The position numbers and the translations under genes were made by a program. A DNA stretch of 64,000 nt from Candidatus Marinacidobacterales bacterium. Lineage in GTDB: Bacteria; Acidobacteriota; Vicinamibacteria; Marinacidobacterales; SMYC01. The notes under the pieces were generated by a model that saw only the letters and a program-made list of their open reading frames with translations, ran no database searches and was not told where the DNA came from. The stretch is taken from NCBI GenBank assembly GCA_965237955.1, contig OZ250169.1:7264001-7328000 (forward strand), given 5' to 3'. Below are positions 6,973-23,613 of the stretch, piece by piece (position 1 is the stretch's first letter; each line of letters begins with the position of its first letter).

Positions 6973-8691
6973 GCCTCTCCTGCCATTTCAGTGGATCCTC
7001 TCGAGGGTGAGACCGCCACAGTTTAGGTAGACGAGACTGATGAGAGCTTCGGCAGAGTGGAGTCCAAAGCTGCGGTGGCTCAGCAGCCGGATTTTGTTGT
7101 TCATTCCTTCGAGTCGGCCGTTGCTGAGTCTCCACGTGACCCACGCGATGACGCCATCGAAGTGGCTGCGGATCATCTTCGCCGCGCGTTTGACGGGCTC
7201 TATCCTCGAGCTCATAGCGCGCCGCAGCCATCCTCGGAGAAACTTCTTGGCCCATGTCTCGGTTTTGTAGGTGTAGAGGTCCATGAAGTCGTCGCGCAGA
7301 AGCATGGCGCGGTAGAGGCGACGATTAGCTCGCACCTGCTCGCGGAGCACCCGTTTGTCTTTCGCGCTGCGGTTGTGTTTGGCCTTGAGAAGGGGAAACT
7401 TGGTGTTCTTGAGGTTGCGCCGGGCAGTCCCTTTGAGCTCGCGCACCAGCTCGCGCCGGGTCTTATCCACGGCCTCGTTCAGATGCTTGACGATGTGGAA
7501 GCGGTCAAAGATCACCCGTGCCTGAGGAGCCTTTTTGCCGACGACAGTTATGTACGGCTCCCACATGTCCATGCTGACCGCTTCGAGCTCCGCGGCTCTT
7601 TGTGGTCCGAGCTTGCGGAAAAACCGCAGCAGCGTCTTGGCCTTGCGCTCCTTTCCCGCCCAGACGACCCGGCCGCTGAGATGGTCTATTACCACTGTTA
7701 AGTACTTGTGGCGTTTGCGGTAGCTGATCTCGTCCATCCCAATCACCCGCAATCCATCGAGCTCGCGCCGCTCATCCCGCTGCTCGGCAACCACTCGCTG
7801 GATGATCCGTCGCACCGAACGCCACGTCACTCGGAAATAGTTCGCTACGGCGCTGACGTCCGTCCTCTGTGCCAGCCACGCTACCTCTTGTTCGAAGCTT
7901 TTGGTAAAGCGGCTTCCCTTGTCTGCCCAAGGCACCTTTTCTCTGACCACTCCACACCGCCGACATACCACTCGTCGGATCGAGTAGCGAAGATAGGTCC
8001 GGACTCCGAACAGGTCCAAGTGCCGCCAGTAGCGATTGTAGCGATCTTTGTTCTTGCGGACCTTTCGTCCGCAAATCCCGCACAGAGGCTTCCTCCTCCG
8101 TGGTACTACATCCACCACCACTCTGTCTTTGTCCGCCTGGAAGTGGAAACCTCGGACCCACAGGCCTTGCAATCCGATGAGCTTGTTGACTAACGTAGTA
8201 ACGCGCATCGCGGGAACGCTCTTTTCTCTTTCGGGAAAAAAGATTCTAGCGTTCTCGCCGATGCGCATCTACACATGGCTTACCCTCTCAACCCACGGGC
8301 CTCACCAAATGCCACTGCCCCTCAGCGGGAGACGAGGCTGTGGGAAACGCCCCCACGGTTCTGGTCGTTCAGACCTTGCTCACGACTGAGTTCTCTTCGA
8401 AGCCTGGAAGGGCGTTTTCCATAGCCTCCACTAATCGAGCCCCCCCTTCCTTATTCCATATGAATTAATCTTTCTTGTATATATATCAGGAGGGGCCTGT
8501 GGGCGCTCGTGGGAAACGCGAAGCGTTTTCCAAGCGATTGTGGAAAACGCCGCTCCACGTTTGTACGTGCTCACAACCTTTCCCTAAACGCCTCTCTCGC
8601 CCGGAGTTTCCGGCGTTTTCCACAATCGCGGCAGCGTCCATAGGCCATGCCCTCCAACACAAATCAGATCCCCCGAAACGACAGGAGAACC
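6973..8691 (-). mobile_element. ISL3 family insertion sequence, copy 1
   Basis: Imperfect IRs (GCCTCTCCTGCCATTT / GGTTCTCCTGTCGTTT); 8-bp TSD ACCTTTTT at 6965-6972 and 8692-8699; second copy at 34005-35722. Confidence 0.93.
6988..8268 (-). CDS. ISL3 family transposase (alternative start 8208)
   Basis: CxxC zinc finger, EKVPWA, IGMDEISYRKRHKY, SMDMWEPY, FDRFH, SNGRLEGMNNKIR. Confidence 0.93.
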   Translation of the reverse strand: MRIGENARIFFPEREKSVPAMRVTTLVNKLIGLQGLWVRGFHFQADKDRVVVDVVPRRRKPLCGICGRKVRKNKDRYNRYWRHLDLFGVRTYLRYSIRRVVCRRCGVVREKVPWADKGSRFTKSFEQEVAWLAQRTDVSAVANYFRVTWRSVRRIIQRVVAEQRDERRELDGLRVIGMDEISYRKRHKYLTVVIDHLSGRVVWAGKERKAKTLLRFFRKLGPQRAAELEAVSMDMWEPYITVVGKKAPQARVIFDRFHIVKHLNEAVDKTRRELVRELKGTARRNLKNTKFPLLKAKHNRSAKDKRVLREQVRANRRLYRAMLLRDDFMDLYTYKTETWAKKFLRGWLRRAMSSRIEPVKRAAKMIRSHFDGVIAWVTWRLSNGRLEGMNNKIRLLSHRSFGLHSAEALISLVYLNCGGLTLERIH

Positions 8692-8833: not shown

Positions 8834-9745
8834 TCAAGACGGTCGGATGGTGTAGTTCCATTTGGGTAGAGTCTGGTCCTTTGTAACGGAAAGCGCCTGC
8901 ATCCGCTCGTCAGTGATTTTGACGCCCTTCGGATAACGACGCCGGATAAGGTGTGCGCGTACTCGCAAACCGGAAGAGGTGGTGGTCGTGCGGATGTATT
9001 TGAGGATGGTTTCGTAGCTGTCGAGAGGCCTGCCCGCCCAGTTCTTGCTGATCTCGCTGAACAGACGGTGCTCCACTGGATTCCACTTGGATGAACCGGA
9101 CGGATAGTGGGCTATGGTGATAGCGATGTCGTGGCGATTGCAAATCCGCGTTTGAAGCCCGTGCTTCCAACCCCGACACCGATAGCCATTGCTGCCCCCG
9201 GCGTCTGCCAATATCGCGAGGTCACGGGCTGCAGGATAGCGTCGCCGTCCTTCCGTTCGCCACCACTTCTCGATGGCATTCACGGCGAAGTCCGGGGTGT
9301 TGTACGAGGTACCAATGAACACTGTCCCGCGGTTCGCGAGCAGATCGTAGACGCCGTAGGGGATTGCGATGCCGTTCGATTCGGAACGGAAGTCATGGTC
9401 TTTGACGAGAGTCGGCTCGCGGTTCCAGGCCTGCCCGCCGTTTTTGAATAATCCCACCAGCTCCCGTTTCTTCGTGTCTACGCTGATGATGGGATGACCA
9501 GCTGCGGCAAAACGCTCGCGCAGTTCGGCGATACACGCGAATTGGGTATCGCGATCTTCGGACGTGGCACCGCACAGCTTCTTGTGGTTCACCCGCAACG
9601 AGAAGCCGAGCTGTTTGAGCAGTCGACCGACGGTTTTGCTGCTGACGTTCACACTGAGGCTTCTTAGCTCGCAAGCAATCTTGTCGGTGGTCCGCCGCGT
9701 CCATTTCACTCCCGTCATCGGATCGCCCGCGGTGTCGTGCTTCAT
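8834..9745 (-). CDS. ISAzo13 transposase DDE region (OrfB, likely reached by -1 frameshift)
   Basis: TAGDPM, ISVDTKKRELVG, DHDF, ADAGGSNG, HYPSGSSKWNPVEHRLFS, WNYTIRP. Confidence 0.92.
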   Translation of the reverse strand: MKHDTAGDPMTGVKWTRRTTDKIACELRSLSVNVSSKTVGRLLKQLGFSLRVNHKKLCGATSEDRDTQFACIAELRERFAAAGHPIISVDTKKRELVGLFKNGGQAWNREPTLVKDHDFRSESNGIAIPYGVYDLLANRGTVFIGTSYNTPDFAVNAIEKWWRTEGRRRYPAARDLAILADAGGSNGYRCRGWKHGLQTRICNRHDIAITIAHYPSGSSKWNPVEHRLFSEISKNWAGRPLDSYETILKYIRTTTTSSGLRVRAHLIRRRYPKGVKITDERMQALSVTKDQTLPKWNYTIRPS

Positions 9746-10530
9746 GAGTTCTTCGATCTTGGCGATGACTTCTGGCGTTTTTTTTGCACGGCGCGCCGTC
9801 CGCCACCCTTTCGCCGAACTCCGTCGAGCTCAACATCTCTCATTAGTAATTCCCTACGACCTCTGGCTACCGTGCTCGGATCCATCCCGAGCAGTTCGGC
9901 AATCTGTTGGTCGCCACCGTGACCGAGCTTCATGGCCTCGACCCCCGCGTAGAGACGGCGCTGCTTTTCATCGAGCAGGCTGTAGAAAAGAACGATCGCA
10001 GCCTTCAACTCCACGGGGAGCACGCGGACTCCCCCGACCCAGCCCAACGTGGAAGGTGACGCCTCATGTACCTGGCGGGCCGAGAGCTGTTGCTTGCGCG
10101 TGCTCACATCGGTGGCCAGATACAGATATCGGCCGAACACCTGCTCGCGCGCCAATCTTTTCTCTCGGACCAGTTTCAACAGAGGAGCCTTGACGTCAAC
10201 CTGCACCTCGTCCTCGAGCTCGTCGACGTAGTAGCCTGCCTCACAGGCCGCGACCAACGCTTTTACCGTCGCAAGCAACGTCCCGTACTTCGAGAACCAC
10301 ACTGAGCGCAACGACCAAAGACCTTTTCGATCGAACTGGGCGATCTCGTCCAACGTGTAGTAGCTACCACGGTGGGAGTAGCTTGTCCGATACGCCAACT
10401 CATTGAGCTTTCGGAAGACGGTCGAGTCCACATCGGTACCCAACACTGCCTTCAAATCATCGAGGGTAGCTATTTTGTGCTTCCTCAACAGGCGGTCGAG
10501 ATCTTCAGACTGATAGCTCGTAGGTCTCAT
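9742..10530 (-). CDS. ISAzo13 OrfA (extra N-terminal domain plus HTH)
   Basis: LDEKQRRLYAGVEAMKLGHGG..TVARGRREL..RRKGGGR; A8 run at 9778-9785. Confidence 0.85.
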   Translation of the reverse strand: MRPTSYQSEDLDRLLRKHKIATLDDLKAVLGTDVDSTVFRKLNELAYRTSYSHRGSYYTLDEIAQFDRKGLWSLRSVWFSKYGTLLATVKALVAACEAGYYVDELEDEVQVDVKAPLLKLVREKRLAREQVFGRYLYLATDVSTRKQQLSARQVHEASPSTLGWVGGVRVLPVELKAAIVLFYSLLDEKQRRLYAGVEAMKLGHGGDQQIAELLGMDPSTVARGRRELLMRDVELDGVRRKGGGRRAVQKKRQKSSPRSKNS

Positions 10531-10768
10531 AATAGGAGAAGTGCTCCTTGATAGGCGTAATCCTCCCTAAAATGAGGACCGTTTGTCAAACACGCGCTGG
10601 TTGCTGAAGATCTACAAATGTTCCGTTTCTAGGGAGCTTGCCAGGCTCTCGTGATGCCAGACGACATCGCGATCACGACCTGAAACAGGAAGAGTGTGCT
10701 CAAAACTAGACAGTTATTTTGTCGGCGGCCCTAAGGGTGGATCGGCACGGAACTTGCGACTGAAACCC

Positions 10769-11965
10769 GTGCCATTGAAGGGCACCATCGAACTCGACTC
10801 CGTGCGCCGGCAATTCGGCCGGGGGACGGTCATCTTCGAAGAACGCGAGCCCGCGAGCTACGCGTACGTGATCGAGACCGGCCTCGTCGAAATCTCGACC
10901 GACGTCGACGACGAGAGGCGGGTGCTGGCCACGATGGGTCCCGGTGAGATGTTCGGTGAGATGGCGGCGCTCGACGGTACCGAGCGCTCGGCCACAGCGA
11001 CGGCCATCGAAGATACCGAGCTCACTCTCATCGTCAGCGACCAGCTACGCTCACGCGTGGAATCGGCCGAGCCGATCCTGAAACTTCTGCTCCGGGTCAT
11101 CCTCAATAGATTTCGGCACGAGCAGAGACTCTTTCGGCATCCGGGAAACGGAACGTTCGAAGCCATAACCCTCGACGCCGAATACGATGTATCGAAGGGG
11201 GCTATCGACAAGATCAAGCTCGAAAGCGATCTGCGCGGCGCACTCGATAGACGTGAGCTCGCTCTTCACTATCAGCCGATCGTGAGCCTCGCTTCCGGTG
11301 ACGTCGCGGGTTTCGAAGCGCTTCTCCGCTGGCGGCACCGAGAGCTCGGAATGATCCCACCGCAGAGTTTCATCGGCCTCGCCGAGGAGACCGCGCTGAT
11401 TGTTCCCATCGGACGTTGGGTGCTGGAGCAAGCGTGCCGGGACCTCGTGCGTTTCCAAGCGCACGCGCGCGACGACGTCACCATGAGCGTGAACGTCTCC
11501 GGACGCCAATTCTCCGAGCCGGCGTTCATCGGTGAGCTCGCGAACGTGATGGCGGAAACGAGCATCGACCCGGAAACGCTCAAGCTCGAGATTACCGAAT
11601 CGGTCCTCATGGACTATCAGTCGGCGCCGCTACGCTGGATCGAGCAATGTAAACGCCTGGGTGCTCAAATCGCGCTCGACGACTTCGGAACCGGGTTCTC
11701 GAGTCTCAGCTATCTCGCGAGCTTTCCCATCGATACCCTGAAGATCGATCGATCGTTCGTCGCCGCGATGCATAAGGATCCGCGCAGTCTCAAGATCGTG
11801 CGCGCGATCAATCAACTCGCCCACGGCATCGGCCTCGACGTCGTTGCCGAGGGGATCGAAGAGCCGGAACAGCGCGACGAACTCGCGCAAATGGGTTGCG
11901 CGCTCGGTCAAGGCTTTCTTTTCTCGAAAGCCGTCCACTTCGACGAGGCCGTCGAGCTCCTCTGA
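10769..11965 (+). CDS. cNMP-binding domain plus EAL c-di-GMP phosphodiesterase
   Basis: GEMFGEMAALDGTERSATA; HYQPIV, FEALLRW, SVNVS, EITES, DDFGTGFSSLSYL, KIDRSF, VAEGIE, QGFLF. Confidence 0.9.
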   Translation: MPLKGTIELDSVRRQFGRGTVIFEEREPASYAYVIETGLVEISTDVDDERRVLATMGPGEMFGEMAALDGTERSATATAIEDTELTLIVSDQLRSRVESAEPILKLLLRVILNRFRHEQRLFRHPGNGTFEAITLDAEYDVSKGAIDKIKLESDLRGALDRRELALHYQPIVSLASGDVAGFEALLRWRHRELGMIPPQSFIGLAEETALIVPIGRWVLEQACRDLVRFQAHARDDVTMSVNVSGRQFSEPAFIGELANVMAETSIDPETLKLEITESVLMDYQSAPLRWIEQCKRLGAQIALDDFGTGFSSLSYLASFPIDTLKIDRSFVAAMHKDPRSLKIVRAINQLAHGIGLDVVAEGIEEPEQRDELAQMGCALGQGFLFSKAVHFDEAVELL

Positions 11966-11967
11966 TC

Positions 11968-12159
11968 TCAGTATCCGTGACCGGTGTTCCATAATCCCCG
12001 GATGCGGAAGCCGCTGGAACTAGAAAAAGAGGATCGCGTCGCGATCGCAGCAATCATGTGGTTGCCATAGAGGGTCGCAACGCCTTTGAAGTTGTCGTTG
12101 GCTCCGTTGGCGTAGGCCACGAACAGCGCACCGAGCAAGAGACCGGCGACAATCACCAT
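11968..12159 (-). pseudogene. PiT-family inorganic phosphate transporter, first helix only
   Basis: LFVAYANGANDNFKGVATLYG (GANDxxN-type PiT signature), then homology is lost. Confidence 0.8.
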
Positions 12160-12173
12160 GGCTTTTCCAGCCG

Positions 12174-13340
12174 TCAGCAGCAGTTACCGTCGGGTCCGCA
12201 GTACGGCGCGTCGGTTGTCTCGGTGGCGTCGTAGTCGAGCCCCTTGGTCTCGCGCGCATGGCGCACCGCGTCCTTCCGGCAATCGAACGGTACCGCTTCT
12301 GAAAGAGGAATCTCCTCGTAAGGCTCTACGGCTTCGATGTCCGCTGCGTAGGGCTCGGATTTGTAAATGTTGAAAGTCTTGTCGCAGACCGCCATGCGTT
12401 GGCCTCGAAAAAGCGCGTGCCCGTCATCGTCGGTGACGCTCCGCCATGGCCCTTTGTAGATCACGGCTTGATGGCGCTCGAGGCACGGGCCTTCCTTCCC
12501 CTTGAAGGCTCGGACCGTGAGCGCGCGGAACTCGATGCCCTCGACGCTCTGCCAGGGTCTTTCGTCCCGCGCGAGGATCTCGACGCCGTAGAACCCGGCT
12601 TCCTCGAATGCCTTCAAGAACAGGTCTTCACGAAACGCACCGGAAATGCAGCCGCTCCAGAGATCGGGATCGGCTTGCAAGTGCTCGGGCACGTCTTCGT
12701 CGCTAACGATGTCCGAGATGACGACGCGTCCACCCCTCTTCAGGACACGATGCATCTCGCGGAAGAGCCCGGATTTCGACTGCGGGTCGACGAGGTTGAG
12801 CACGCAGTTACTCACCACGACGGCGATCGAGGCCGACGGGATCATCGGGTTCTCCCTCCGCTCCTTCTCTTTCCAGTGGCCCACGGCCTCGAGCTCCTCG
12901 ACGGTGCGTACAGGATGAGACTCGAGATGGGCCTCGAGCCGTTCTTGATCGAGAGCGAGGTCTTGAATCTTGCCTTTGCGGAGCTCGACGTTGTGATAGC
13001 CGAGCGCGTCCCCGATGCTCTGCCGGTAGTTGCGCGCCAGCGCGAGCATGTCATCGTTTATTTCGACGCCGATGACGCGGCCTTCCGGCCCCACCACCTG
13101 AGACGCGATATAACAAATCTTGCCGCCACCGCTTCCGAGGTCCAGAACCGTTTCTCCCGGATGCAGGTGCTTCGAAGGGTCCCCGCAGCCGTAGTCCCGC
13201 TCGAGGATCTCTTCGGGAATCACCGACAGGTATCGCGGGTCGTAGTCCACGGGACAGCAGAGCTCTCGCTCTCGCGCCGTTGCCGCCTGCGAGTAGCGCG
13301 ACTTCACGGCTCGTTCGGGGTTTATCTCGGTTGTCGCCAT
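12174..13340 (-). CDS. arsM: ArsM-like As(III) SAM methyltransferase with Cys-rich C-terminal extension
   Basis: LCCP, YGCGDP, VLDLGSGGG, VGPEGRVIGV, SNCVLNL, WSGCISGA (positions of the four AS3MT/ArsM cysteines); ends YCGPDGNCC; TGATG coupling to the upstream gene. Confidence 0.8.
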   Translation of the reverse strand: MATTEINPERAVKSRYSQAATARERELCCPVDYDPRYLSVIPEEILERDYGCGDPSKHLHPGETVLDLGSGGGKICYIASQVVGPEGRVIGVEINDDMLALARNYRQSIGDALGYHNVELRKGKIQDLALDQERLEAHLESHPVRTVEELEAVGHWKEKERRENPMIPSASIAVVVSNCVLNLVDPQSKSGLFREMHRVLKRGGRVVISDIVSDEDVPEHLQADPDLWSGCISGAFREDLFLKAFEEAGFYGVEILARDERPWQSVEGIEFRALTVRAFKGKEGPCLERHQAVIYKGPWRSVTDDDGHALFRGQRMAVCDKTFNIYKSEPYAADIEAVEPYEEIPLSEAVPFDCRKDAVRHARETKGLDYDATETTDAPYCGPDGNCC

Positions 13341-14134
13341 CAGAAGCTTCCTTTCTTTCGCTCTTTCGCCGGGAGAATCTCGAGGCAGGTGGTCCACCAT
13401 CCGTGCCGGATCGTGTCCATGAACTCCACCGGGAGACCCTCCTGCTTCATCTCGAGCGCCAGGCTCTCGTGGTCGTAGTCCACGGGGACGAACTCGGCGT
13501 CGAAGCCGTTGCGGGCGTCGAGAATCGTGTACCAGACGTTGGTCCGTCCATCGTTGGCGGGCCGCCCCACGACACCGACGTTGACGAAGTGCCGGTCGCC
13601 GGTAAGCTCGCGCTTCCAATGAAGACCGGTATGCGTGGCTAGCACCACGTCGGCGTGATGCGAGTCCACCATCTTCTCGAGAAAATGCGTCGGGGTCGTA
13701 GACTCCCAGAGGAACTCGTTCATCTTTCGAGGCGAACCGTGGCTCATGAGCACCCGGTAGCCGCCGAGCTCGATGCGGATCGACTCCGGGAGCGATCGCA
13801 TCCACGACTTCCATCGGTCCGAGGTTCGGTCGAAGGTGTAGTCGTAGGAGATCTTCGCGAAGAAGTTGTCGCGGGGGTCGGTGTACCCGCACTGGCAGTC
13901 GTTGAGTCCGCGCCCGATGGAGTTGTCGTAGTTCCCCTGCATCACCCGTACGCCCGCTTCGAGCAACAAAGGAAACGTCTTGTCGGGGTGCGGCCCGAAG
14001 GCGCCGAGATCCCCGAGACAGAATATGGCGTCGACGTCGCGCCGGCGGGCGTCGGCAATGGCGGCCTCGAGGGCGATATGGTTGCTGTAGACGCCGCCGA
14101 GAGCGGCGATTCTCTCGAAGCGCTCAGGCCGCAT
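13340..14134 (-). CDS. Calcineurin-like metallophosphoesterase
   Basis: GGVYSNHIAL, CLGDLG, QGNYD, SHGSP, THTG; extra CQCGY and WWTTCLE. Confidence 0.85.
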   Translation of the reverse strand: MRPERFERIAALGGVYSNHIALEAAIADARRRDVDAIFCLGDLGAFGPHPDKTFPLLLEAGVRVMQGNYDNSIGRGLNDCQCGYTDPRDNFFAKISYDYTFDRTSDRWKSWMRSLPESIRIELGGYRVLMSHGSPRKMNEFLWESTTPTHFLEKMVDSHHADVVLATHTGLHWKRELTGDRHFVNVGVVGRPANDGRTNVWYTILDARNGFDAEFVPVDYDHESLALEMKQEGLPVEFMDTIRHGWWTTCLEILPAKERKKGSF

Positions 14135-15014
14135 CGCCGCCTCCCGCGCTCACATTGCTGCAAATGGCGCCGCCTACATAGCAGGTGTAGCAGGCTCCAT
14201 GCGCGAGCGGATAGGAGCCGAGCGACTCGGACAGGGTCTTTCCCATGCGGGCTTCCGGCGAGTCGATGAGGATGGGGCAGACGTAGACGCCCTTGTCGGT
14301 CACGATCCGCGAGTGGGTGCAGATGAGCTGAGAGACGTCGAAGTCCTCGAGCATCTCCACGGTCACCTTCTCCGACGGGTGATAGCCGCGATTGCGTTCG
14401 ACTTCCGCGCCGATCCGCAAGGTCGGAATGATCTTCACTCGGGGGCGCTCGTATCCTGCATCTCGCAGCACGCTCACGAAACGCGCGAAGACGTCGTCGT
14501 TGCGATCGTCGTCCCAGGTTTGCGCCACGGTGATGATCGGGAGGAAGCCGTGCTGCAGAAGAAGCCGCACACCGGCCATCGCGCGCACGAACGTCCCGTC
14601 CCCGCGAATGGGATCGTTCGTCTCGCTCGAGTAGCCGTCGATACTCACCCGAAACTCCAGGCTGTAGGGCGAAAGCACCTCGGCCCGCTCCAGCCGGGCG
14701 GCGGCCTCCGGTTTCAACAACGTCCCGTTCGTGAGCACGGTCGCCGGACCGAGCTCCAGGGTGCGCTCGAGAATCTCGACCATGTCCGGGTGTATGAAGG
14801 GCTCTCCCCCCGTGTAGTAGTACTCCTTGACGCCGAGCTCCCGAGACTCTTCGAGTGCGAGGAGCACGGCCTCACGGGAGAGGAGCTCGAACGTGTGGTT
14901 CGTCGGACCACACGAGATGAAGCAGTGGTGGCACGTCAGATTGCACAGCGTTCCCGAGATCTGGAACCAGAGATCGTCGAGGGCGCGAAGCTCGACCTGG
15001 GCACTCGCGCTCAC
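14124..15014 (-). CDS. Radical SAM protein with Cys-rich C-terminus (ArsS-related, divergent)
   Basis: CNLTCHHC, YYTGGEP, LTNG, RVSIDG; C-terminal IC..VCPIL..CYTC....C; GTGA overlap with the upstream gene. Confidence 0.85.
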   Translation of the reverse strand: MSASAQVELRALDDLWFQISGTLCNLTCHHCFISCGPTNHTFELLSREAVLLALEESRELGVKEYYYTGGEPFIHPDMVEILERTLELGPATVLTNGTLLKPEAAARLERAEVLSPYSLEFRVSIDGYSSETNDPIRGDGTFVRAMAGVRLLLQHGFLPIITVAQTWDDDRNDDVFARFVSVLRDAGYERPRVKIIPTLRIGAEVERNRGYHPSEKVTVEMLEDFDVSQLICTHSRIVTDKGVYVCPILIDSPEARMGKTLSESLGSYPLAHGACYTCYVGGAICSNVSAGGGDAA

Positions 15015-16222
15015 GAGGCTCGCTCCTTCCGCCCCTCGGCGGCCAGCAGTCCGAACACTTCTTCGATCTGCTGGAGCCCGATGCGGATCAGGAAGTTCGA
15101 GCCTTTGCCGTAGCTCTTGGCCCCGAGAATGAAGAAATTCGGTTCCGGATTTCTGAGAACCTCGGCACCTTTGGACGTCTGCGCCAGGCAGTCGACCGGG
15201 CTTTCGCCGAGAAGAGCTGCGGCAAGTTTCATCGGAGCCAGCGAGGCGTAGCACTCGTGGACTTGGAGCTCTCGATAGAGGCTTCGGTCCGGATGGTACC
15301 CGACGTGGGCAAGGATCCGGTCCACGGTCACGAGCTTGGTTACCCGCGACGAGCGAAGCTCGACTTCGAACGCGGAGCTCTCACGCCGTACCGACTCGAC
15401 GGTGTGCTCTGGATAGAAGTGGACCCGGGCGTCGCCTCCCGCCGCGAGCTCACCTGCGAGCTCGGAGAGCCTCTTGCGCTCGGGAAGCGGATCGTCGGCG
15501 ATGACGGCGGGCGGCTTCTGTCTTCGCGCGACCCAGTGGACCGTCGTTTCGGGAAGGGCCCTCAAACCGTCGAGCGCCGTGCTCGCCGAGTGACCGTCGC
15601 CGACGAGGAGAACACGCTTTGCCTCGTATCTCGCGCGATCCGTCCCGGGGACGTCTTCGAGCTCGTAGGCAATGTGCTCCTCGAGCGCGCGCTCTCCGAG
15701 AGCCGGTACGTTCCCGTTTCCCATCCAATTGTGGTTTCCATACGTCCCCGAACAGTCGAAAAGGACGTCTGCCTCCACGAGCTCTTCGTCGCCGGCCTCG
15801 CTTTCGACGAGAAGCCGGAACGGATACCGCTCCCGCGGACCGCCGATGAGGTCGCCCTTCCCGATGCCGTCGCGGCCGACCGAGACCACGCGCGTGTTCT
15901 GGTGGATGCATCCCGACAGAGGGGCTGTGCGCGACAGAGGCTCGAGATAGCGCTCGAGGTGCTCCTCCCCGGTGAGATACTCCCCGGCCTCGGGAAGCTT
16001 GAAACCTTCGGCTTGGAGAAGGCGCGCACCCCGCCCCGAGTGATCGAGCTCGAAGGAAGAGAAGAGCCGCACGTGTCCCCAGCGCCGCAGGTTCCCGCCG
16101 ACGGCTCCACGCTCATAGACGCGAACGTCGTATCCGAGCTCGCGCCCGGCGAGCGCGGCCTCGATTCCGATCGGGCCAGCGCCGATGATGGCTAGTCTGT
16201 GCAAGTCTATGGGCCTTTCCAC
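15011..16222 (-). CDS. FAD/NAD(P)-dependent oxidoreductase (flavoprotein monooxygenase-like)
   Basis: IIGAGPIG, WGHVRLFS, FDCSGT, LVGDGHSA, GYHPD, EPNFFILGAKSYG. Confidence 0.85.
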   Translation of the reverse strand: MERPIDLHRLAIIGAGPIGIEAALAGRELGYDVRVYERGAVGGNLRRWGHVRLFSSFELDHSGRGARLLQAEGFKLPEAGEYLTGEEHLERYLEPLSRTAPLSGCIHQNTRVVSVGRDGIGKGDLIGGPRERYPFRLLVESEAGDEELVEADVLFDCSGTYGNHNWMGNGNVPALGERALEEHIAYELEDVPGTDRARYEAKRVLLVGDGHSASTALDGLRALPETTVHWVARRQKPPAVIADDPLPERKRLSELAGELAAGGDARVHFYPEHTVESVRRESSAFEVELRSSRVTKLVTVDRILAHVGYHPDRSLYRELQVHECYASLAPMKLAAALLGESPVDCLAQTSKGAEVLRNPEPNFFILGAKSYGKGSNFLIRIGLQQIEEVFGLLAAEGRKERAS

Positions 16223-16266
16223 GGATACACTCCCGGTCCGCCTTTCGCGGATCTCGAACAGAAGGA

Positions 16267-17034
16267 TTAGAGCGTCGTGCAGGAAGGCAGCGGCGGAGCG
16301 CGCAACCGGTGGGCGGCGGCGGGTGAGAGGCGCTTGAGAGAGTGATGAGCCTCTTCGATGGTCCAAAGTTCCGGTACGGAAAGTCGTCGAATCCGAGAGA
16401 CGAGCCTCTTCAGAGCTACTCGGGCCCGCGGTCCATGGCTCGAGATGCGGTTCAAAAAGCGCACGAGCTCCTGAGCGCTATCGATGTCTTCGAGCTTCCG
16501 AAGTTGCGCCACCCCGAAGCCGCTTTCCTGAAGCCGCTCCACGGTCCGTTGCGCAACCTCGGCCGAGCCCCAGGGCATCGCTTCGAAGGCCGCGATGCAC
16601 GGCTCCGTCAGGCCGATAAGGTTGTAGCCTCCGTCGGTCGCCGGACCGACGACGGCCTTCCGTTCTCCTCGTGAGAGCTCGTCGAGAGCGGTTTTCACGT
16701 AATCCTGAGAGATCTCCGGCGCATCGTTCCCGATGACGACGACCCGCCGGTAGCCGCGCGCGAACGCCTCCTCGACCGCAAGCCTGAGCGATTCTCCGAA
16801 GTCTCTCCCTCGTTGACGGAGCCACTGAGCTCCCGGCGGGAGATCGACCGGTGCCTCGCTGGCGACGAGTAGATCGGCGCCGCTCAGACCCGTGCACACC
16901 GTCTGAACGTGCTCGATCAGGGTGGCAAAAAGAGCCGTGGCACGCTGCGACCCGTGGAGCCCGAGGGGTTTTCTAACCGCTTCCGCCTCCGGCGTCAGCG
17001 TGAAGAGGACGACCGCCGAGCTCGAGCGCCGCAT
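16267..17034 (-). CDS. DUF2064 / TIGR04282-type transferase (arsenosugar-cluster associated)
   Basis: QRGRDFGESL, VVVIGNDAP, VVGPATDGGYNLIGL, MPWGS, LEDID; C-terminal tail containing RAPP. Confidence 0.85.
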   Translation of the reverse strand: MRRSSSAVVLFTLTPEAEAVRKPLGLHGSQRATALFATLIEHVQTVCTGLSGADLLVASEAPVDLPPGAQWLRQRGRDFGESLRLAVEEAFARGYRRVVVIGNDAPEISQDYVKTALDELSRGERKAVVGPATDGGYNLIGLTEPCIAAFEAMPWGSAEVAQRTVERLQESGFGVAQLRKLEDIDSAQELVRFLNRISSHGPRARVALKRLVSRIRRLSVPELWTIEEAHHSLKRLSPAAAHRLRAPPLPSCTTL

Positions 17035-17109: not shown

Positions 17110-17603
17110 CACCTATACGTCTGACGGCACATCTATCAGGCTACGCCGTCTTCTCAGCGATGGAAGAGCTCGAGCCTGATTTTCTCGTCGCGAACGGCGA
17201 CATGATCTACGCGGACAGCGAGTGCGCCGCGGAGCGCGCCGAAGGTGGCCGGAACATCCCCGGCGATTTCCCCAAGATCGACGATCCGAGCGTCGACTGG
17301 ACCAACGCGTCAGCCGTGAGAGAGATTTACCTCGCGCATTGGCGGTACAACCGCGCCGACCCCCACTTCCAGAGTCTCCTATCGAAAGCGTCGATGTACT
17401 CCCAGTGGGAAGACCGATGTCGATGGCGACGGCGATCGGCTGTTGTTCCACGAGCTCATAAGCGGCCCGCTGAGCGCGTTCAAGTCCGCGCCGCGGGGTC
17501 CCGACCCTACTTTCCAGCCACGCATCCTCTATGCCGAAGGCGAGCTCTTCAACTTCTCCTTCGTGCGCATCGAGCGTCGTGACGGCGTTTCCCACCTCCT
17601 CGC
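17110..17603 (+). pseudogene. PhoD-family alkaline phosphatase remnant (no N-terminus, internal deletion, cut by IS5)
   Basis: PDFLVANGDMIYAD..HWRYNRADPH..SQWED, then in another frame FHELISGPLSA..FNF. Confidence 0.75.
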
Positions 17604-18690
17604 TGCCTTGGTGCACAACTCGCGATCTCGGTCCACAATTGTCCTTTACTCACGGATTCGAGGTTCCCCATGAGCATTTTCAAACGCACTCAGCGGAAGT
17701 ATGTGAAGAAGGCCTATCGCGTGAGGAATTGGCGTGAATATGAGGCGGGTCTACGCAACCGTGGGAGCCTGACCGTCTGGATCTCGCTCACCGCCGGCAA
17801 GCTTGTGAACTGGGACGCGCCCCGGCCGAGGAGGAGGAAACCGGGCCGTCAACGCAAGTACTCGAACCACGCCATCGAGACGGCTGTCACCCTGGGCATG
17901 GTGTTTCATCTGTCATCTAGGCAGAGCGAGGGATTGCTGCGATCGTTGTTCGCTCTGATGAAGCTAGACAATGATGTGCCCGATCACACCACGATCTCGA
18001 GGCGCAAGGCGAAGCTGGGTAAGGTCCCCTTCTACCAAGACAAGCAGAAGACGCCGTTGCACATCTTGATCGACAGCAGCGGTCTCGCTGTCCACGCCGG
18101 CCAGCTGCGCAGAGCACCAAAGAGCAGGGACTATCGCAAGCTCCATCTGTGTGTCGACGAGCAGAGTGGCGAAGTCGTCGCCGGCGAGCTGACGAGCAAA
18201 AGAGCCCGCGATTCATCGCGGGTTGCATCGCTTGTCGGACAGATCGACAGTCCCATCTCATCGGCCAGAGCTGACACCGCATACGACGCCGGCGGCGTCT
18301 ATGAGGCAATCGAGAATCACAGCGCTCATTGCTCGCCGAGGGTGCTGATACCGCCGCGCAAGGGCGCCCAGCTCGCATCGGGGCCGGCGAGCAGCCGACA
18401 GCGCAATCGCAACATTGCAGCACAAGCTCGGCTCGGCAAACGAAAGTGGCACACAGAATCGGGCTACAGCAAACGGAGCAAAGTCGAGACAACGTTCCAT
18501 CGCTACAAGGCTATCGTGGGCTCAGCGATGCGAGCGAGAGGGTTGGCGGCACAGAGAGTCGAGGCAAGGATCGGGTGCAAGATTCTGAACACCATGACGG
18601 CGCTCGGGATGCCTGATAGCGAGATGATCGGATGATGGGAGTCGGGGCCAAGCGAGCTCTCGGCCTCTATCGGAGTTGTGCACCAAGGCA
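17604..18690 (+). mobile_element. IS5 family (IS903 group), copy 2
   Basis: Same 18-bp IRs; near-identical to copy 1. Confidence 0.92.
17670..18635 (+). CDS. IS5 family DDE transposase
   Basis: 321 aa, protein identical to copy 1. Confidence 0.93.
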   Translation: MSIFKRTQRKYVKKAYRVRNWREYEAGLRNRGSLTVWISLTAGKLVNWDAPRPRRRKPGRQRKYSNHAIETAVTLGMVFHLSSRQSEGLLRSLFALMKLDNDVPDHTTISRRKAKLGKVPFYQDKQKTPLHILIDSSGLAVHAGQLRRAPKSRDYRKLHLCVDEQSGEVVAGELTSKRARDSSRVASLVGQIDSPISSARADTAYDAGGVYEAIENHSAHCSPRVLIPPRKGAQLASGPASSRQRNRNIAAQARLGKRKWHTESGYSKRSKVETTFHRYKAIVGSAMRARGLAAQRVEARIGCKILNTMTALGMPDSEMIG

Positions 18691-19408: not shown

Positions 19409-20591
19409 GTCCCATGGAACAGAAAAAGCTAGACAACACTGGCACTTCTGTGATCTGCTAAATGCATGAAACACAAGGGCCGGCGAAAAGCCGAATTGAA
19501 GCTGTCGTCTCAAGAAAGCGAAGCGCTGACGCGACTGGCGCGACGCAGCCGTAGTTCGCCGCACCAAGCCTTCCGAGCGAAGATCGTGCTGGATTGCGCG
19601 GCGGGTCTGACGAATATGGAAGTTGCTAGGAAGATGCACACCATGAGGAGCACGGTGGGCAAGTGGCGAAGACGCTTTGTAGAACAACGAATGGAAGGGT
19701 TGTACGACGAACCTCGGCCGGGAGCGGCTCGCAAAATCGGCGATGACCAGATCGAGGAAGTCGTGACCAAGACGCTGGCGACGACTCCAAAGGGGAGAAC
19801 CCATTGGAGTACGCGCTCGATGGCCAAGCATCTTGGGCTGAGTCATTCGACGATTGGACGTATTTGGCGAACGTTCGGGCTTCAACCGCACCGCTCGGAA
19901 TCGTTTCGTCTCTCGCAAGACCCACAACTGGTCGAAAAAGTACGCGACGTTGTTGGCCTGTATATGAACCCACCGGATAACGCGGTCGTCCTGTGCGTCG
20001 ACGAGAAATCGCAGATTCAAGCGCTCGAGCGTGCTCAACCTGTCCTGCCCATGAGCTTGGGCCAGCCCGAGCGACAAACCCACGACTACATTCGGCATGG
20101 AACGACTGACCTGTTTGCCGCACTCGACGCCGCAACAGGTGAAGTCTTCGGAAAGTGCTACGCGCGACATCGAGCGCTAGAGTTCAAGAAGTTCCTCGCT
20201 GAGATCGAAGCAGCCGTTCCCAGCGAGTTGGACATCCACGTCGTGCTCGACAATCTCGCCACGCACAAGACACCGGCGATCAAACGCTGGCTTTCCAAGC
20301 GACCTCGGTTCCACTTTCACTTCACACCGACACACGCCTCTTGGCTCAACTTCGCTGAGCGCTTCTTTGGCTTGCTCACCGAACACGCCTTGCGACGAGG
20401 CTCGCACACGAGCGTGCCTCAGCTCCGCGTTGCGATACAAGACTATCTCGATGCTCACAACGAGAACCCAAAGCCGTTCAAGTGGACGAAATCCGCCGAC
20501 CAAATCCTCGAAACCATCGCTCGGTTCGCCCAGCGAACGCTCGATACACATGGCAAATCGAATTTGGACAGTAATTAAAGATCCAGGGGAC
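19409..20591 (+). mobile_element. IS630 family insertion sequence
   Basis: Inserted in CTAG with TA duplication; IRs GTCCCATGGAAC / GATCCAGGGGAC. Confidence 0.92.
19466..20578 (+). CDS. IS630 family transposase
   Basis: [59 protein letters not shown]. Confidence 0.95.
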
Positions 20592-20791: not shown

Positions 20792-21061
20792 ATGTTTTCC
20801 TGGAAAAAAACTCGCCGCAGAGGCGCAGAGGACGCAGAGATTCGCAGAGAGTATTTGTTGGAGGAAGCTACGCGCTTGAGTGGTGAGAGAACCTTTTCCG
20901 CTGCCGTGAACCGGGCCCTCGACCACTACGTTCGGCGGGCAAAAGCTGGCCGAATTCTGGAGTTGGCTGGAAGAGGACTGTGGGAGGGAAACCTCTCGGA
21001 AATGAGGGGCGATCGCAGCGCTCGCTCGAACAAACACAAGGCCGGTCGTGGTACTCGTTGA
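20792..21061 (+). CDS. VapB-type antitoxin with N-terminus replaced by repeat-derived sequence (possibly a pseudogene)
   Basis: LLEEATRLSGERTFSAAVNRAL..RRAKAGRILELAG..WEGNLSEMR; overlaps the PIN gene. Confidence 0.65.
   Translation: MFSWKKTRRRGAEDAEIRREYLLEEATRLSGERTFSAAVNRALDHYVRRAKAGRILELAGRGLWEGNLSEMRGDRSARSNKHKAGRGTR
20813..20850 (+). repeat. Four CGCAGAG units (short REP-like repeat)
   Basis: cgccgcagaggcgcagaggacgcagagattcgcagaga. Confidence 0.6.
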
Positions 21062-21437
21062 CACCTCTGTCTGGATTGAGATCTTCAAGAAGCCGCCCGG
21101 GCTCGATTTGACGGCATTGGTGGACATCGACGAGGTGGCAGTCTGTCTACCCGTGATTCAGGAGGTCGTTCAGGGTTTCCGCGATGAGCGCGCGTTCGAC
21201 GTTGCGCGGGAAGCCATGCTCTCCTTTCCGGTAGTGGAGTCCCCTCTTGAAGAGTCGGTTTTCATGGAAGGCGCCTCGCTCTATCGGAGCGCCCGGCGCC
21301 GCGGATTTACTGTGCGCTCGAGCGTCGATTGCCTGATCGCGACGTGCGCGATCCGAAACGACTTAGAAGTGTTGCACCGTGACCGAGACTTCACCACTCT
21401 GGCTGAAGTGTCGCCGCTAAAGCTGCGTTCGCTGTGA
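21048..21437 (+). CDS. vapC: PIN-domain VapC toxin
   Basis: VLVDTSVWI, QEVVQG, SSVDCLIA, LHRDRDF. Confidence 0.9.
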   Translation: MVLVDTSVWIEIFKKPPGLDLTALVDIDEVAVCLPVIQEVVQGFRDERAFDVAREAMLSFPVVESPLEESVFMEGASLYRSARRRGFTVRSSVDCLIATCAIRNDLEVLHRDRDFTTLAEVSPLKLRSL

Positions 21438-21463: not shown

Positions 21464-22156
21464 CTAGACGCCGGCTTCGCGTAACGCTTTCTTTGCAGTG
21501 CGGGTGATCAGGATGGTCACCGCGAGCGTGGCGAGAAGGCCTACGACCTGGAGCACGATCTTCAGGGTCTCCGCGCTCTCGGCGCCCGAGGCGGCTTCGA
21601 GGCCGCTTCGTCCCAAGGTTCCGAAATACACGTAGAGGAACGTTCCCGGGATCATGCCGATCCACGTCGCCAGCGTGTAGTGCCAGAAGGTGACGCTGGT
21701 CAGCCCGTACGCGTAGTTCTGGAAATTGAACGGAAAGATCGGCGATAGCCGGGTGAGGAAAACGATCTTCCAGCCCTGTTTCGCGACGGCCTTGTCGATC
21801 ACGTTGAACGACGGCTTTTCCTGAATCCAGCCTTCGACGCGCTTTCGTGCTACGAACCGCGACACGAGGAATCCGAGCGCGGCCCCGAGCGTGGCGCCAT
21901 GCAAGACGGTGACGAATCCAGGAAGCAACCCGAACACGGCTCCGCCCGCGAGCGTCAGGAGCGAGCCCGGAATCATCAGAACCGTGGCGACAGCGTAGAC
22001 GAGCGCGAACAGCACCATCCCCAAGACGCCGAGCTCGCTGACCCAGGCACTGAAGACCTTGAGCCAATCGGCGACGGGTAGCATGCGCGCGGCGACGATG
22101 AAGCCGACAAGAACCACCGCGATCAGACCGTATTTGACGTAGTTCTTGGCCGCCAT
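21464..22156 (-). CDS. TVP38/TMEM64 (VTT) membrane protein
   Basis: IPGSLLTLAGGAVFG, LTRLSPIFPFNFQNYAYGLT, GMIPGTFLYVYFG. Confidence 0.9.
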   Translation of the reverse strand: MAAKNYVKYGLIAVVLVGFIVAARMLPVADWLKVFSAWVSELGVLGMVLFALVYAVATVLMIPGSLLTLAGGAVFGLLPGFVTVLHGATLGAALGFLVSRFVARKRVEGWIQEKPSFNVIDKAVAKQGWKIVFLTRLSPIFPFNFQNYAYGLTSVTFWHYTLATWIGMIPGTFLYVYFGTLGRSGLEAASGAESAETLKIVLQVVGLLATLAVTILITRTAKKALREAGV

Positions 22157-23613
22157 CAGGAACGCCCCCGTTTGTAGAGCCATTTGAAGATGTTAGCGAC
22201 CGTCGCCGTCAGCTTCGTTTTCTGGAACGAGTCGGCGACGCGCTGCACCGAAGACGACAGATTCGGATACGCGTGGATGGTTCCGGAGAGTTTGGAGAGA
22301 CCAATGCCGTGTTTGGCGGCGACGAGCACTTCGTGGATGACTTCGCCGGCGTGGACGCCGGTCACCGTCGCACCGAGAATCTTGTCTTTGCCGGCCTCGG
22401 TGAGAACTTTGATGAAGCCTGTAGTCTCGCTGTCGGTGATCGCGCGATCGAGATCGTTCCAGTCGAAGCGGAAGACGTCGTAGGCGACGTTTTGCTTCTT
22501 GGCCTCGTCCTCGGTCAGACCGCAGTGGGCGACTTCCGGATCGGTGTAGGTGACCCAGGGCATCCAAGTATAGTCCGCCTTGGTCTTGAACCACGGAATG
22601 AGAATGTTCCGAACGACGATCCGTGCCTGGTAGTCGGCGGAGTGCGTGAACTGATACGGGCCGGCGACATCGCCGCAGGCGAAAATGTGTGGCTGCGACG
22701 TCGTCAAGGTCTCATCGACTTTGACGCCCCCGCGGTCGAACTCGACGCCGGCTTCCTCGAGACCGAGGTTGTCGACGTTCGCTTTGCGGCCAGTTGCGAC
22801 CAACAGCGCCTCCGATTCCAGCTTCCTCTGCTCTCCGTCTTCATTCTCGACGGTCGCGACAACGAGCTCGTCCTTCTGTTCGAAGCTCGTCGCTTTTGTG
22901 CCGGTGAAGACCTCGATGCCTTCTTCCGCGAAGCGCTTGGTGATGAGCGCGCTCGCGTCGGCGTCGTCGCGCGGTAAAAGCCTCGGCAGAAGCTCGACGA
23001 GCTTCACCTGAACGCCGAGCCGCCTCATAACTTGAGCGAACTCGCAGCCGATGGGCCCGCCCCCGAGGATGATGATCGACTTCGGCGCCTTCGGCATGTC
23101 GTCGAAGATGGTCTCGTTCGTGAAGTAAGGAACCTTGTCGAGACAGGGGATGGGCAGAACGAGTGCTTTCGTCCCGGTCGCGATCACGAAATTCCGGGCT
23201 TTCAGCCGGGTACCGTCATCGATTTCGACTTCGTGCGGGGAGACGAACTTCGCGCGCCCTTGGAACACGTCGACGCCGAGGCCTTCGAAGCGTTCGACGG
23301 AGTCGTTGGGCTCGATCTTGGCCCGCCGCTCGCGCATGCGCGCGAACACGTCTTCAAATCGAAACGACGGTTCCATGTCGGAAAGACCCATCTTCTTCGC
23401 GTGGCGGATACGCTCGATGAGCTTCGCCGACGAGATGAGTGCTTTCGAAGGAACGCATCCGTAGTTCAAACAGTCGCCGCCCATTTTTCCGGCTTCGATC
23501 AAAGCCGCCCGCCCGCCCAGCCCGACCGTGCCGGCGGACGTGACCAGGCCCGCGGTGCCGGCGCCGATGACGACGACGTTGTAACGCCCGTTTCCCTTGA
23601 CTTCTTCGCTCAT
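22156..23613 (-). CDS. MerA/LpdA-like pyridine nucleotide-disulfide oxidoreductase
   Basis: IGAGTAG, GGDCLNYGCVPSK, GGGPIGCE, YQFTH, TYTDPEVA, IHAYP; no C-terminal CC pair of true MerA. Confidence 0.9.
   Translation of the reverse strand: MSEEVKGNGRYNVVVIGAGTAGLVTSAGTVGLGGRAALIEAGKMGGDCLNYGCVPSKALISSAKLIERIRHAKKMGLSDMEPSFRFEDVFARMRERRAKIEPNDSVERFEGLGVDVFQGRAKFVSPHEVEIDDGTRLKARNFVIATGTKALVLPIPCLDKVPYFTNETIFDDMPKAPKSIIILGGGPIGCEFAQVMRRLGVQVKLVELLPRLLPRDDADASALITKRFAEEGIEVFTGTKATSFEQKDELVVATVENEDGEQRKLESEALLVATGRKANVDNLGLEEAGVEFDRGGVKVDETLTTSQPHIFACGDVAGPYQFTHSADYQARIVVRNILIPWFKTKADYTWMPWVTYTDPEVAHCGLTEDEAKKQNVAYDVFRFDWNDLDRAITDSETTGFIKVLTEAGKDKILGATVTGVHAGEVIHEVLVAAKHGIGLSKLSGTIHAYPNLSSSVQRVADSFQKTKLTATVANIFKWLYKRGRS

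Follow-up and report, generated by a model that had tools for sequence, protein, structure and literature searches.

In a 64,000-nucleotide stretch of a Candidatus Marinacidobacterales genome (contig OZ250169.1; hereafter the window), inspection of the open reading frames (ORFs) resolved an operon on the minus strand at positions 11968–17034, which contains five intact genes and a scrap of a sixth. All of them lie on the minus strand, the first being a DUF2064 (TIGR04282-like) CofC-fold transferase (16267..17034, 255 residues, PF09837 with E 2.9e-26), an accessory gene of arsenosugar clusters. It is followed by an FAD/NAD(P)H flavoprotein (15011..16222, 403 residues, PF13738/PF07992) and by an enzyme of an unnamed radical S-adenosylmethionine (SAM) family (14124..15014, 296 residues, PF04055), here called X, which is predicted to form carbon–arsenic (C–As) bonds. 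Next come a metallophosphoesterase-fold protein (MPE; 13340..14134, 264 residues, PF12850), a predicted Car1-like As(V) reductase, and a long-form ArsM-like As(III) methyltransferase (12174..13340, 388 residues), which matches arsenic methyltransferases in NCBIfam and the PDB. The last element (11968..12159) is a remnant of a PiT-family transporter, a 63-codon ORF in which only the first 31 or so codons, GAND signature included, derive from PiT and the rest is unrelated; 69 nt of it are 90% identical to the start of the PiT gene of a relative (G033), and a profile search with PF01384 (PiT) found no match in the whole genome. A preliminary description of this DNA had listed six packed, co-oriented genes, which holds for the five intact ORFs but not for this sixth one.

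The GTGA and TGATG overlaps claimed among the middle four genes are present, at the flavoprotein/X and the MPE/methyltransferase junctions, respectively; X and MPE overlap by 11 nt, and a gap of 44 nt separates the DUF2064 and flavoprotein genes. The start of the flavoprotein is backed by an ATG at the matching place in a 96%-identical relative. A scan of the locus for promoters and terminators returned none of the former and two of the latter, with 4.2 expected. Short contigs from RNA runs of close strains touch parts of all five genes, but we do not claim them as evidence of transcription, because they come from four runs in two studies at low depth with DNA carry-over uncontrolled.

X had been described as a non-canonical radical SAM enzyme rather than a bona fide ArsS, and comparison with the ArsS model TIGR04167 (curated cut-off 300 bits) bore this out. 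X scored 53.5 bits, over residues 13–157 only (52.1 bits in a genome-wide search), whereas true ArsS proteins of the same order score 360–455 bits. X passed no cut-off among its 25 best of 50 NCBIfam matches, where the Rv1681 family ranked first (100 bits against a cut-off of 380) and ArsS thirteenth. Alignment of X with ArsS by hhalign gave a probability of 98% (E 1.4e-13, 24% identity) and placed the first two tail cysteines of both proteins together. The quoted radical SAM motif and C-terminal cysteine tail were found in the translation of X; the cysteines of CxxxCxxC (C24, C28, and C31), C35, and the tail residues C232, C246, C275, C278, and C285 are invariant in 46 aligned sequences. The spacing of the tail in X (C232-x13-C-x28-CxxC-x6-C) is similar to that in ArsS (C239-x14-C-x36-CxxC-x7-C). 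Both are enzymes of about 300 residues with a five-cysteine tail, and BlsE and SkfB are the top two fold matches of both structure models; the fold search with X returned only generic twitch/SPASM enzymes, its model being of low confidence at the cluster-binding loop and the cysteine tail, and a search of the ESM Atlas returned only unnamed clusters. In a tree built quickly from 49 rows, the ArsS proteins grouped as a single starred clade with a branch length of 6, and X and its fused and sister forms fell outside it. We rejected an assignment of X as true ArsS on the basis of the score and the separate clade. Of the "distant ArsS paralog" proposed earlier, the remote profile similarity stands but a specific kinship does not. 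That X is merely a divergent ArsS in an ordinary arsenosugar operon would fit its position in the same slot beside a long ArsM and the 98% profile probability, but this is very improbable in view of the partial, sub-threshold match and the clade of its own.

Another comparison is with ArsL, which acts with ArsM in the biosynthesis of arsinothricin, likewise a pairing of a radical SAM enzyme with a long ArsM. The C-terminal RCCLKC of ArsL is required for arsenic binding, as stated in the available text of the source (bioRxiv 10.1101/2024.02.01.577332). This tail is absent from the translation of X, and no ArsL model was found among the 25 best NCBIfam matches, although no search was aimed at an ArsL profile. 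Within this scope we rejected X as ArsL. The DUF2064 linkage of the operon, in contrast to the arsinothricin system, points to sugar chemistry.

The methyltransferase belongs to the same long ArsM subfamily that adjoins true ArsS, and the ArsS-linked orthologues are 55–62% identical to the operon copy. Its five PDB matches are all arsenic methyltransferases (E 1e-31), and it scored 337.3 bits with NF040538 (cut-off 500), 184.8 bits with NF008823 (cut-off 263), and 127.7 bits with NF038099 (cut-off 400). The four ArsM cysteine motifs are kept, as had been noted: C52, C179, and C231 match residues 72, 174, and 224 in an alignment with ArsM 4fr0/4kw7, and the N-terminal pair C28/C29, which falls outside that alignment, is invariant together with these three residues in 35 long ArsM homologues. 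This comparison follows the residue numbering of CmArsM. The cysteine-rich tail ending in CC is also present, but it is not distinctive, as it is found in 30–31 of the 35 long homologues, ArsS-linked copies included; we therefore rejected it as a mark of novelty. The genome carries a second, short ArsM-like gene (L253:5613-6470; G000:C1, near 2255700) whose reading frame contains, at the place of a conserved cysteine motif, a TGA that may encode selenocysteine.

The MPE retains the metallophosphoesterase fold but has lost some of the metal ligands that its name implies. Against the ligand motifs DxH, GD, GNH, H, and GHxH, it has GGVY, GD42, GN68Y, H132, and TH168TG, so that the first metal site is degenerate (DxH replaced by GGVY and GNH by GNY) and the binuclear ligand set is incomplete in the motif test. 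Instead, C39, C80, and C82 are conserved in 71 of 71 sequences and C250 in 70 of 71. Plasmid relatives at 30–32% identity lie in ars operons in all four cases inspected, and the counterpart of C80-x-C82 in three aligned ars-operon MPEs is C74-x-C76. Car1 of Rufibacter tibetensis is stated to be an MPE-fold As(V) reductase for which Cys74 and Cys76 are essential (PMC12124457). The MPE of the operon thus resembles As(V) reductases of the Car1 type, a prediction reached by way of the ars-operon relatives. Its identity to the ars-operon group is about 30%, and it differs in GGVY in place of DxH, in the extra invariant C250, and in being tied to X and not to ArsR or Acr3.

Plasmid relatives of the flavoprotein share 32–34% identity over approximately 90% of its length; four of the five inspected lie in ars operons, and the fifth has an ArsR-type regulator and an MFS transporter as neighbours. 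We presume these plasmid flavoproteins to be ArsZ-like. The operon flavoprotein and its relatives have the WGHV and KSYG motifs and one aligned cysteine in common, but the former lacks the cysteine-rich C-terminal tail of the latter and has HECY in addition. C324 and C345 of the operon protein are conserved in 55 and 56 of 56 sequences, respectively, and a PDB sequence search with it returned nothing specific. ArsZ is cited as a methylarsenite oxidase in the available text of PMC11719878. By this likeness, the flavoprotein is predicted to be an oxidase of trivalent organoarsenic, and most likely both it and the MPE manage the oxidation state of arsenic, which need not imply a different carbon skeleton.

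The DUF2064 protein scored 125.7 bits over the whole TIGR04282 model (cut-off 134). A TIGR04283 glycosyltransferase over its cut-off, a second DUF2064 gene, and a DUF547 gene are found elsewhere in the genome. The arsenosugar names of TIGR04282 and TIGR04283 presumably rest on gene neighbourhood. This leaves room for the argument that the genes act on a non-arsenic substrate, such as another metalloid or a thiol-bound one, and that the arsenic link is inherited annotation, the more so as no gene of the operon passed a curated arsenic-family cut-off in NCBIfam and X itself best matches the Rv1681 family. We nevertheless consider this improbable, for the methyltransferase, MPE, and flavoprotein are each independently nearest to relatives from arsenic systems and have kept the cysteines.

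X was found in 12 of 40 relatives at 68–97% identity; the closest named records (96–97% identity in X) are of Candidatus Marinacidobacterales, Acidobacteriota. The five-gene order is kept in nine of these 12, three of the nine having one broken gene, and because it recurs in this way the operon is not a chance arrangement. A scan of GTDB for X yielded at least 583 confirmed loci, of which the neighbourhoods of the best 80 were examined. These span Acidobacteriota, Planctomycetota, Calditrichota, Ignavibacteriota, Bacteroidota, Latescibacterota, and Verrucomicrobiota. The neighbourhood of X, taken as 10 kb, contained the MPE in 67 loci (directly downstream in 62), the flavoprotein in 53 (directly upstream in 51), DUF2064 in 17, and the methyltransferase in ten; of the 13 loci that lack MPE, six come to an end within 1 kb. 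In 50 of the genomes concerned, a long methyltransferase (E <1e-100) was present in 27 and ArsS in three. The X loci share the accessory genes of ArsS clusters, namely DUF2064, TIGR04169 over its cut-off, DUF547, PiT, and VTT. The expectation that homologs of these genes co-occur across genomes is borne out, as they co-occur and even fuse across phyla.

None of the 80 loci matched queries for ArsC (two types), Acr3, ArsR, ArsH, ArsA, ArsN, or ArsK-type MFS, and none has the resistance layout of ArsR with an efflux pump. The operon in the window likewise has no arsR, arsC, or acr3 nearby. The earlier statement that no ArsR, ArsC, or Acr3 gene is present is correct for the vicinity and, for Acr3, for the whole genome, but ArsC-like (34%) and ArsR-like (44%) genes exist away from the operon. 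A preference for biosynthesis over resistance had been drawn from that absence. It gains from the position of X loci outside ars operons, but the "no ArsC" part of the argument is undercut because the MPE itself resembles As(V) reductases of the Car1 type. What stands is an organoarsenic operon, outside the ars resistance context, with a radical SAM enzyme at its core that falls short of the ArsS model.

Gene fusions are, as far as sequences can tell, the best support for joint action of X and ArsM. All 44 long homologues of X (519–2000 residues, E up to 1e-40) are fusions, 31 with ArsM (30 with X first and one with ArsM first), 11 with the flavoprotein, and two with the MPE; some may be read-through artefacts, and several fusion clusters have multiple members. 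Four genomes of a Planctomycetota sample have intact X–ArsM ORFs of approximately 600 residues, with PiT near two of them and DUF2064 near one. In a separate observation, G242 encodes an 819-residue fusion of a SPASM-type radical SAM enzyme with ArsM (L222:6190-8646) with a PiT-like gene nearby, and similar long radical SAM–ArsM ORFs occur in G269, G296, G309, G235, and G305. None of these six genomes has ArsS, and these fusions possibly represent another ArsM-fused radical SAM family.

The Planctomycetota sample comprises 251 genomes from the phylum of G046 (Adhaeretor mobilis, L050), a completely sequenced isolate genome that carries both the X and the ArsS systems; in large searches, seven to nine candidates per genome were scored. 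At an E value of up to 1e-55, X was present in 24 genomes (19 unfused, four fused, and one divergent). Eight weaker matches were left out of this count (two full-length sister forms and six N-terminal matches in long ORFs), and ArsS was found in none of those eight genomes. ArsS was present in 72 of the 251, and only two of the 24 X genomes, G046 and G195, have both enzymes. Without the centre genome, one overlap was seen where 6.5 were expected (p 0.006), a p value that overstates the avoidance, as do others of this kind, because kin are not independent, the genomes are incomplete, and the number of candidates scored per genome was limited. In the order of the window genome, X occurs in 13 and ArsS in 22 of 41 genomes with one having both, and by genus the numbers are seven and eight with one shared; the window genome itself has no ArsS in a TIGR04167 search. 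A long ArsM was found in 54 of the 251 genomes, of which 39 have ArsS, 12 have X (two of these genomes counting for both enzymes), and five have neither, so that 49 of the 54 have ArsS or X. Five checked X genomes without a long ArsM hold another ArsM-type gene. Generic ArsM was rejected as a co-occurrence test since it matches in 115 of the 251 genomes and is thus uninformative.

The partner genes follow X closely. Orthologues of the MPE (E <1e-100) and of the flavoprotein (E <1e-70) occur in the identical 18 genomes, each of them one of the 19 that have unfused X, whereas the 70 genomes with ArsS only have neither; in some of the 18, the three genes are unlinked, on separate contigs or far apart. 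Weaker MPE matches occur in 13 other genomes of the sample. The four genomes with X–ArsM fusions have neither orthologue.

We consider it about as probable as not (roughly 50%) that the operon is a second entry route to arsenosugar-type compounds, with X standing in for ArsS. This assignment is based on the X–ArsM fusions, the rare coexistence of X with ArsS, and the use of the same long ArsM, as well as on the shared accessory genes, the presence of TIGR04283 in a genome without ArsS, and the similar cysteine spacing. Further grounds are the ars-operon relatives of the MPE and flavoprotein and the locus of G031 (L039:6189-12524), where an intact ArsS over the cut-off directly follows the methyltransferase and the X of the same operon is frameshifted. 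With the ArsM–ArsS pathway (TIGR04167, with TIGR04282, TIGR04283, and TIGR04169) the operon has in common its ArsM subfamily, DUF2064, and the accessory neighbours; it differs in that X fails TIGR04167 and is accompanied by two proteins, one Car1-like and one a flavoprotein, that are missing from ArsS-only genomes.

From the observed gene anatomy, residues, co-occurrence, fusions, and avoidance of ArsS, we infer the chemical steps as follows. The Car1-like MPE would use its CxC to reduce As(V) species, whether arsenate or its methylated forms, to As(III), and ArsM would methylate As(III) using SAM. X would then cleave SAM and join the 5'-deoxyadenosyl radical to a trivalent methylarsenical, giving 5'-deoxy-5'-(di)methylarsinoyl-adenosine. 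The flavoprotein may oxidise the trivalent product, or stray methylarsenite, to a safer As(V) form, and DUF2064 may elaborate the sugar together with the TIGR04283 glycosyltransferase, whose gene lies away from the operon. In the available parts of the sources, ArsS adenosylates trivalent dimethylarsenic, DMAs(III), to DDMAA, which is 5'-deoxy-5'-dimethylarsinoyl-adenosine (PMC13598754; bioRxiv 10.64898/2026.04.29.721666). Because X is remote from ArsS in identity, in the tree, and in match rank, adenosyl-transfer chemistry is borrowed for X by analogy.

Several observations weigh against X being a replacement for ArsS. The kinship of the two enzymes is remote and unspecific, and the best model of the methyltransferase is that of arsinothricin ArsM (NF040538), not that of arsenosugar ArsM (NF038099). 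The avoidance of ArsS is inflated by relatedness among the genomes, and five genomes keep both enzymes (G046, G195, G031, G059, and G087). The locus of G031 could be a replacement in progress or an assembly error. Among ten X genomes chosen for lacking a long ArsM, three have an ArsM over the cut-off, two have no match, and five have weak ones; six of the ten, or seven if G070 is counted in both groups, have no match above about 105 bits, in incomplete metagenome-assembled genomes. The operon is also decaying in very close relatives, one of which (G015) has no DUF2064 gene and carries a shortened methyltransferase, and is for this reason dispensable in this lineage.

Two further points of this kind concern loci in which X is found without ArsM. 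In nine of the best 80 loci, a solute symporter stands next to X and MPE, and neither a methyltransferase nor a flavoprotein is found there. A sister family, located on a plasmid of Roseomonas (NZ_CP061178.1), is accompanied by TIGR04282, DUF547, MPE, and a phosphonate-type ABC importer, with no ArsM match in the 21-kb stretch. These arrangements fit the import and reduction of already methylated arsenic, and they also fit salvage or breakdown. The whole module could accordingly recycle or detoxify environmental organoarsenicals, by uptake, reduction, radical C–As cleavage or rearrangement, and oxidation, and build nothing new, an idea to which the ars-operon relatives of the MPE and flavoprotein lend some weight. 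We regard it as unlikely, since ArsM is the commonest fusion partner of X, neither an efflux pump nor ArsR occurs in the 80 loci, and X is linked to DUF2064 and other arsenosugar accessory genes. In the Roseomonas locus (L173:8550-13952), the sister X also stands beside a second radical SAM enzyme (best match TrsS, 100 bits against 490), and the locus carries VTT and MerA-like genes.

The absence of MPE and flavoprotein orthologues from ArsS-only genomes suggests that ArsS, which works without them, has different needs from X. It is possible, though we hold this only tentatively, that X makes a C–As product other than that of ArsS, such as a monomethyl arsenosugar precursor or the product of another SAM-fragment transfer as by ArsL, and that the reductase and the flavoprotein each carry out a step specific to that pathway. 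In favour of such a product are the closed set of X, MPE, and flavoprotein, which holds even where the genes are unlinked, the occurrence of ArsM, MPE, and flavoprotein each fused to X, the remoteness of X from ArsS, and the persistence of X beside ArsS in G046 and G195, each of which has two long ArsM copies. The preliminary description had gone further and read the extra genes themselves as pointing to a different product. We do not follow it here, as the MPE is reductase-like and the flavoprotein oxidase-like and both may only manage redox state, and as the X–ArsM fusions in genomes without either orthologue indicate that X itself can do without these proteins. That X and ArsS nearly exclude each other and share accessory genes is compatible with a single function, and the missing RCCLKC tail and the lack of an ArsL model among the 25 best NCBIfam matches speak against ArsL-type transfer. 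Taken by itself, the pattern in which X avoids ArsS but shares its accessory genes is explained by replacement no less well than by a new product.

The surroundings of the operon are rich in mobile-element-like sequences. Transposase-like ORFs, with types judged by eye, flank it at 6988-8268, 8834-10530, 17670-18635, and 19466-20578, and similar elements interrupt the same operon in close relatives. Just upstream, a fragment of a PhoD alkaline phosphatase with a frame change and deletions lies on the plus strand (17160-17582; PF09423, E 8.7e-7). On the other side, a plus-strand gene for a cNMP-binding and EAL protein (10694-11965) converges on the operon end with no link seen. A small plus-strand gene pair (20792-21437) resembles, by eye, an antitoxin and a PIN-domain toxin. 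Farther out, 4.4 kb upstream of the operon and behind insertion-sequence-like elements, a VTT/DedA membrane protein and a MerA-like flavoprotein are encoded on the minus strand (21464-23613). The same pair of families also flanks ArsS clusters and sister-X clusters; the MerA-like copies of arsenosugar clusters are matched at 61% by another copy in the genome (G000:C1:3214826) and at 46% by the copy in the window, which makes the pair at most a candidate part of the operon.

In the available text of the source, the known bacterial routes to C–As bonds are ArsM, ArsS, ArsL, and the SAM-independent bisenarsan route (PMC12159101). The bisenarsan (bsn) system of Streptomyces, as described there, is likewise one of organoarsenic biosynthesis, but it has no SAM-dependent enzyme and shares no gene with the operon. 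In the open-access literature examined, as far as its available text goes, only ArsS and ArsL are described as C–As-forming radical SAM enzymes, and no description of the X family or its cassette was found there; PMC9807832, PMC13188914, and bioRxiv 10.64898/2026.08.27.747368 gave no decisive information. X may conceivably be a third such family beside ArsS and ArsL that, with a reductase and an oxidase of its own, makes a new organoarsenic natural product, which we put forward with reserve; its hosts would then, with the same reserve, be Acidobacteriota, Planctomycetota, Calditrichota, Ignavibacteriota, and further bacteria that are for the most part uncultured.

X is in any case a distinct and common family, with at least 583 loci in GTDB and a link to ArsM through fused genes, and genomes carrying it number approximately one third to over one half of those with ArsS in the samples analysed here. 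If X replaces ArsS, surveys that count arsS would miss part of the arsenosugar producers. If X makes something else, it would represent a new organoarsenical and new radical chemistry.

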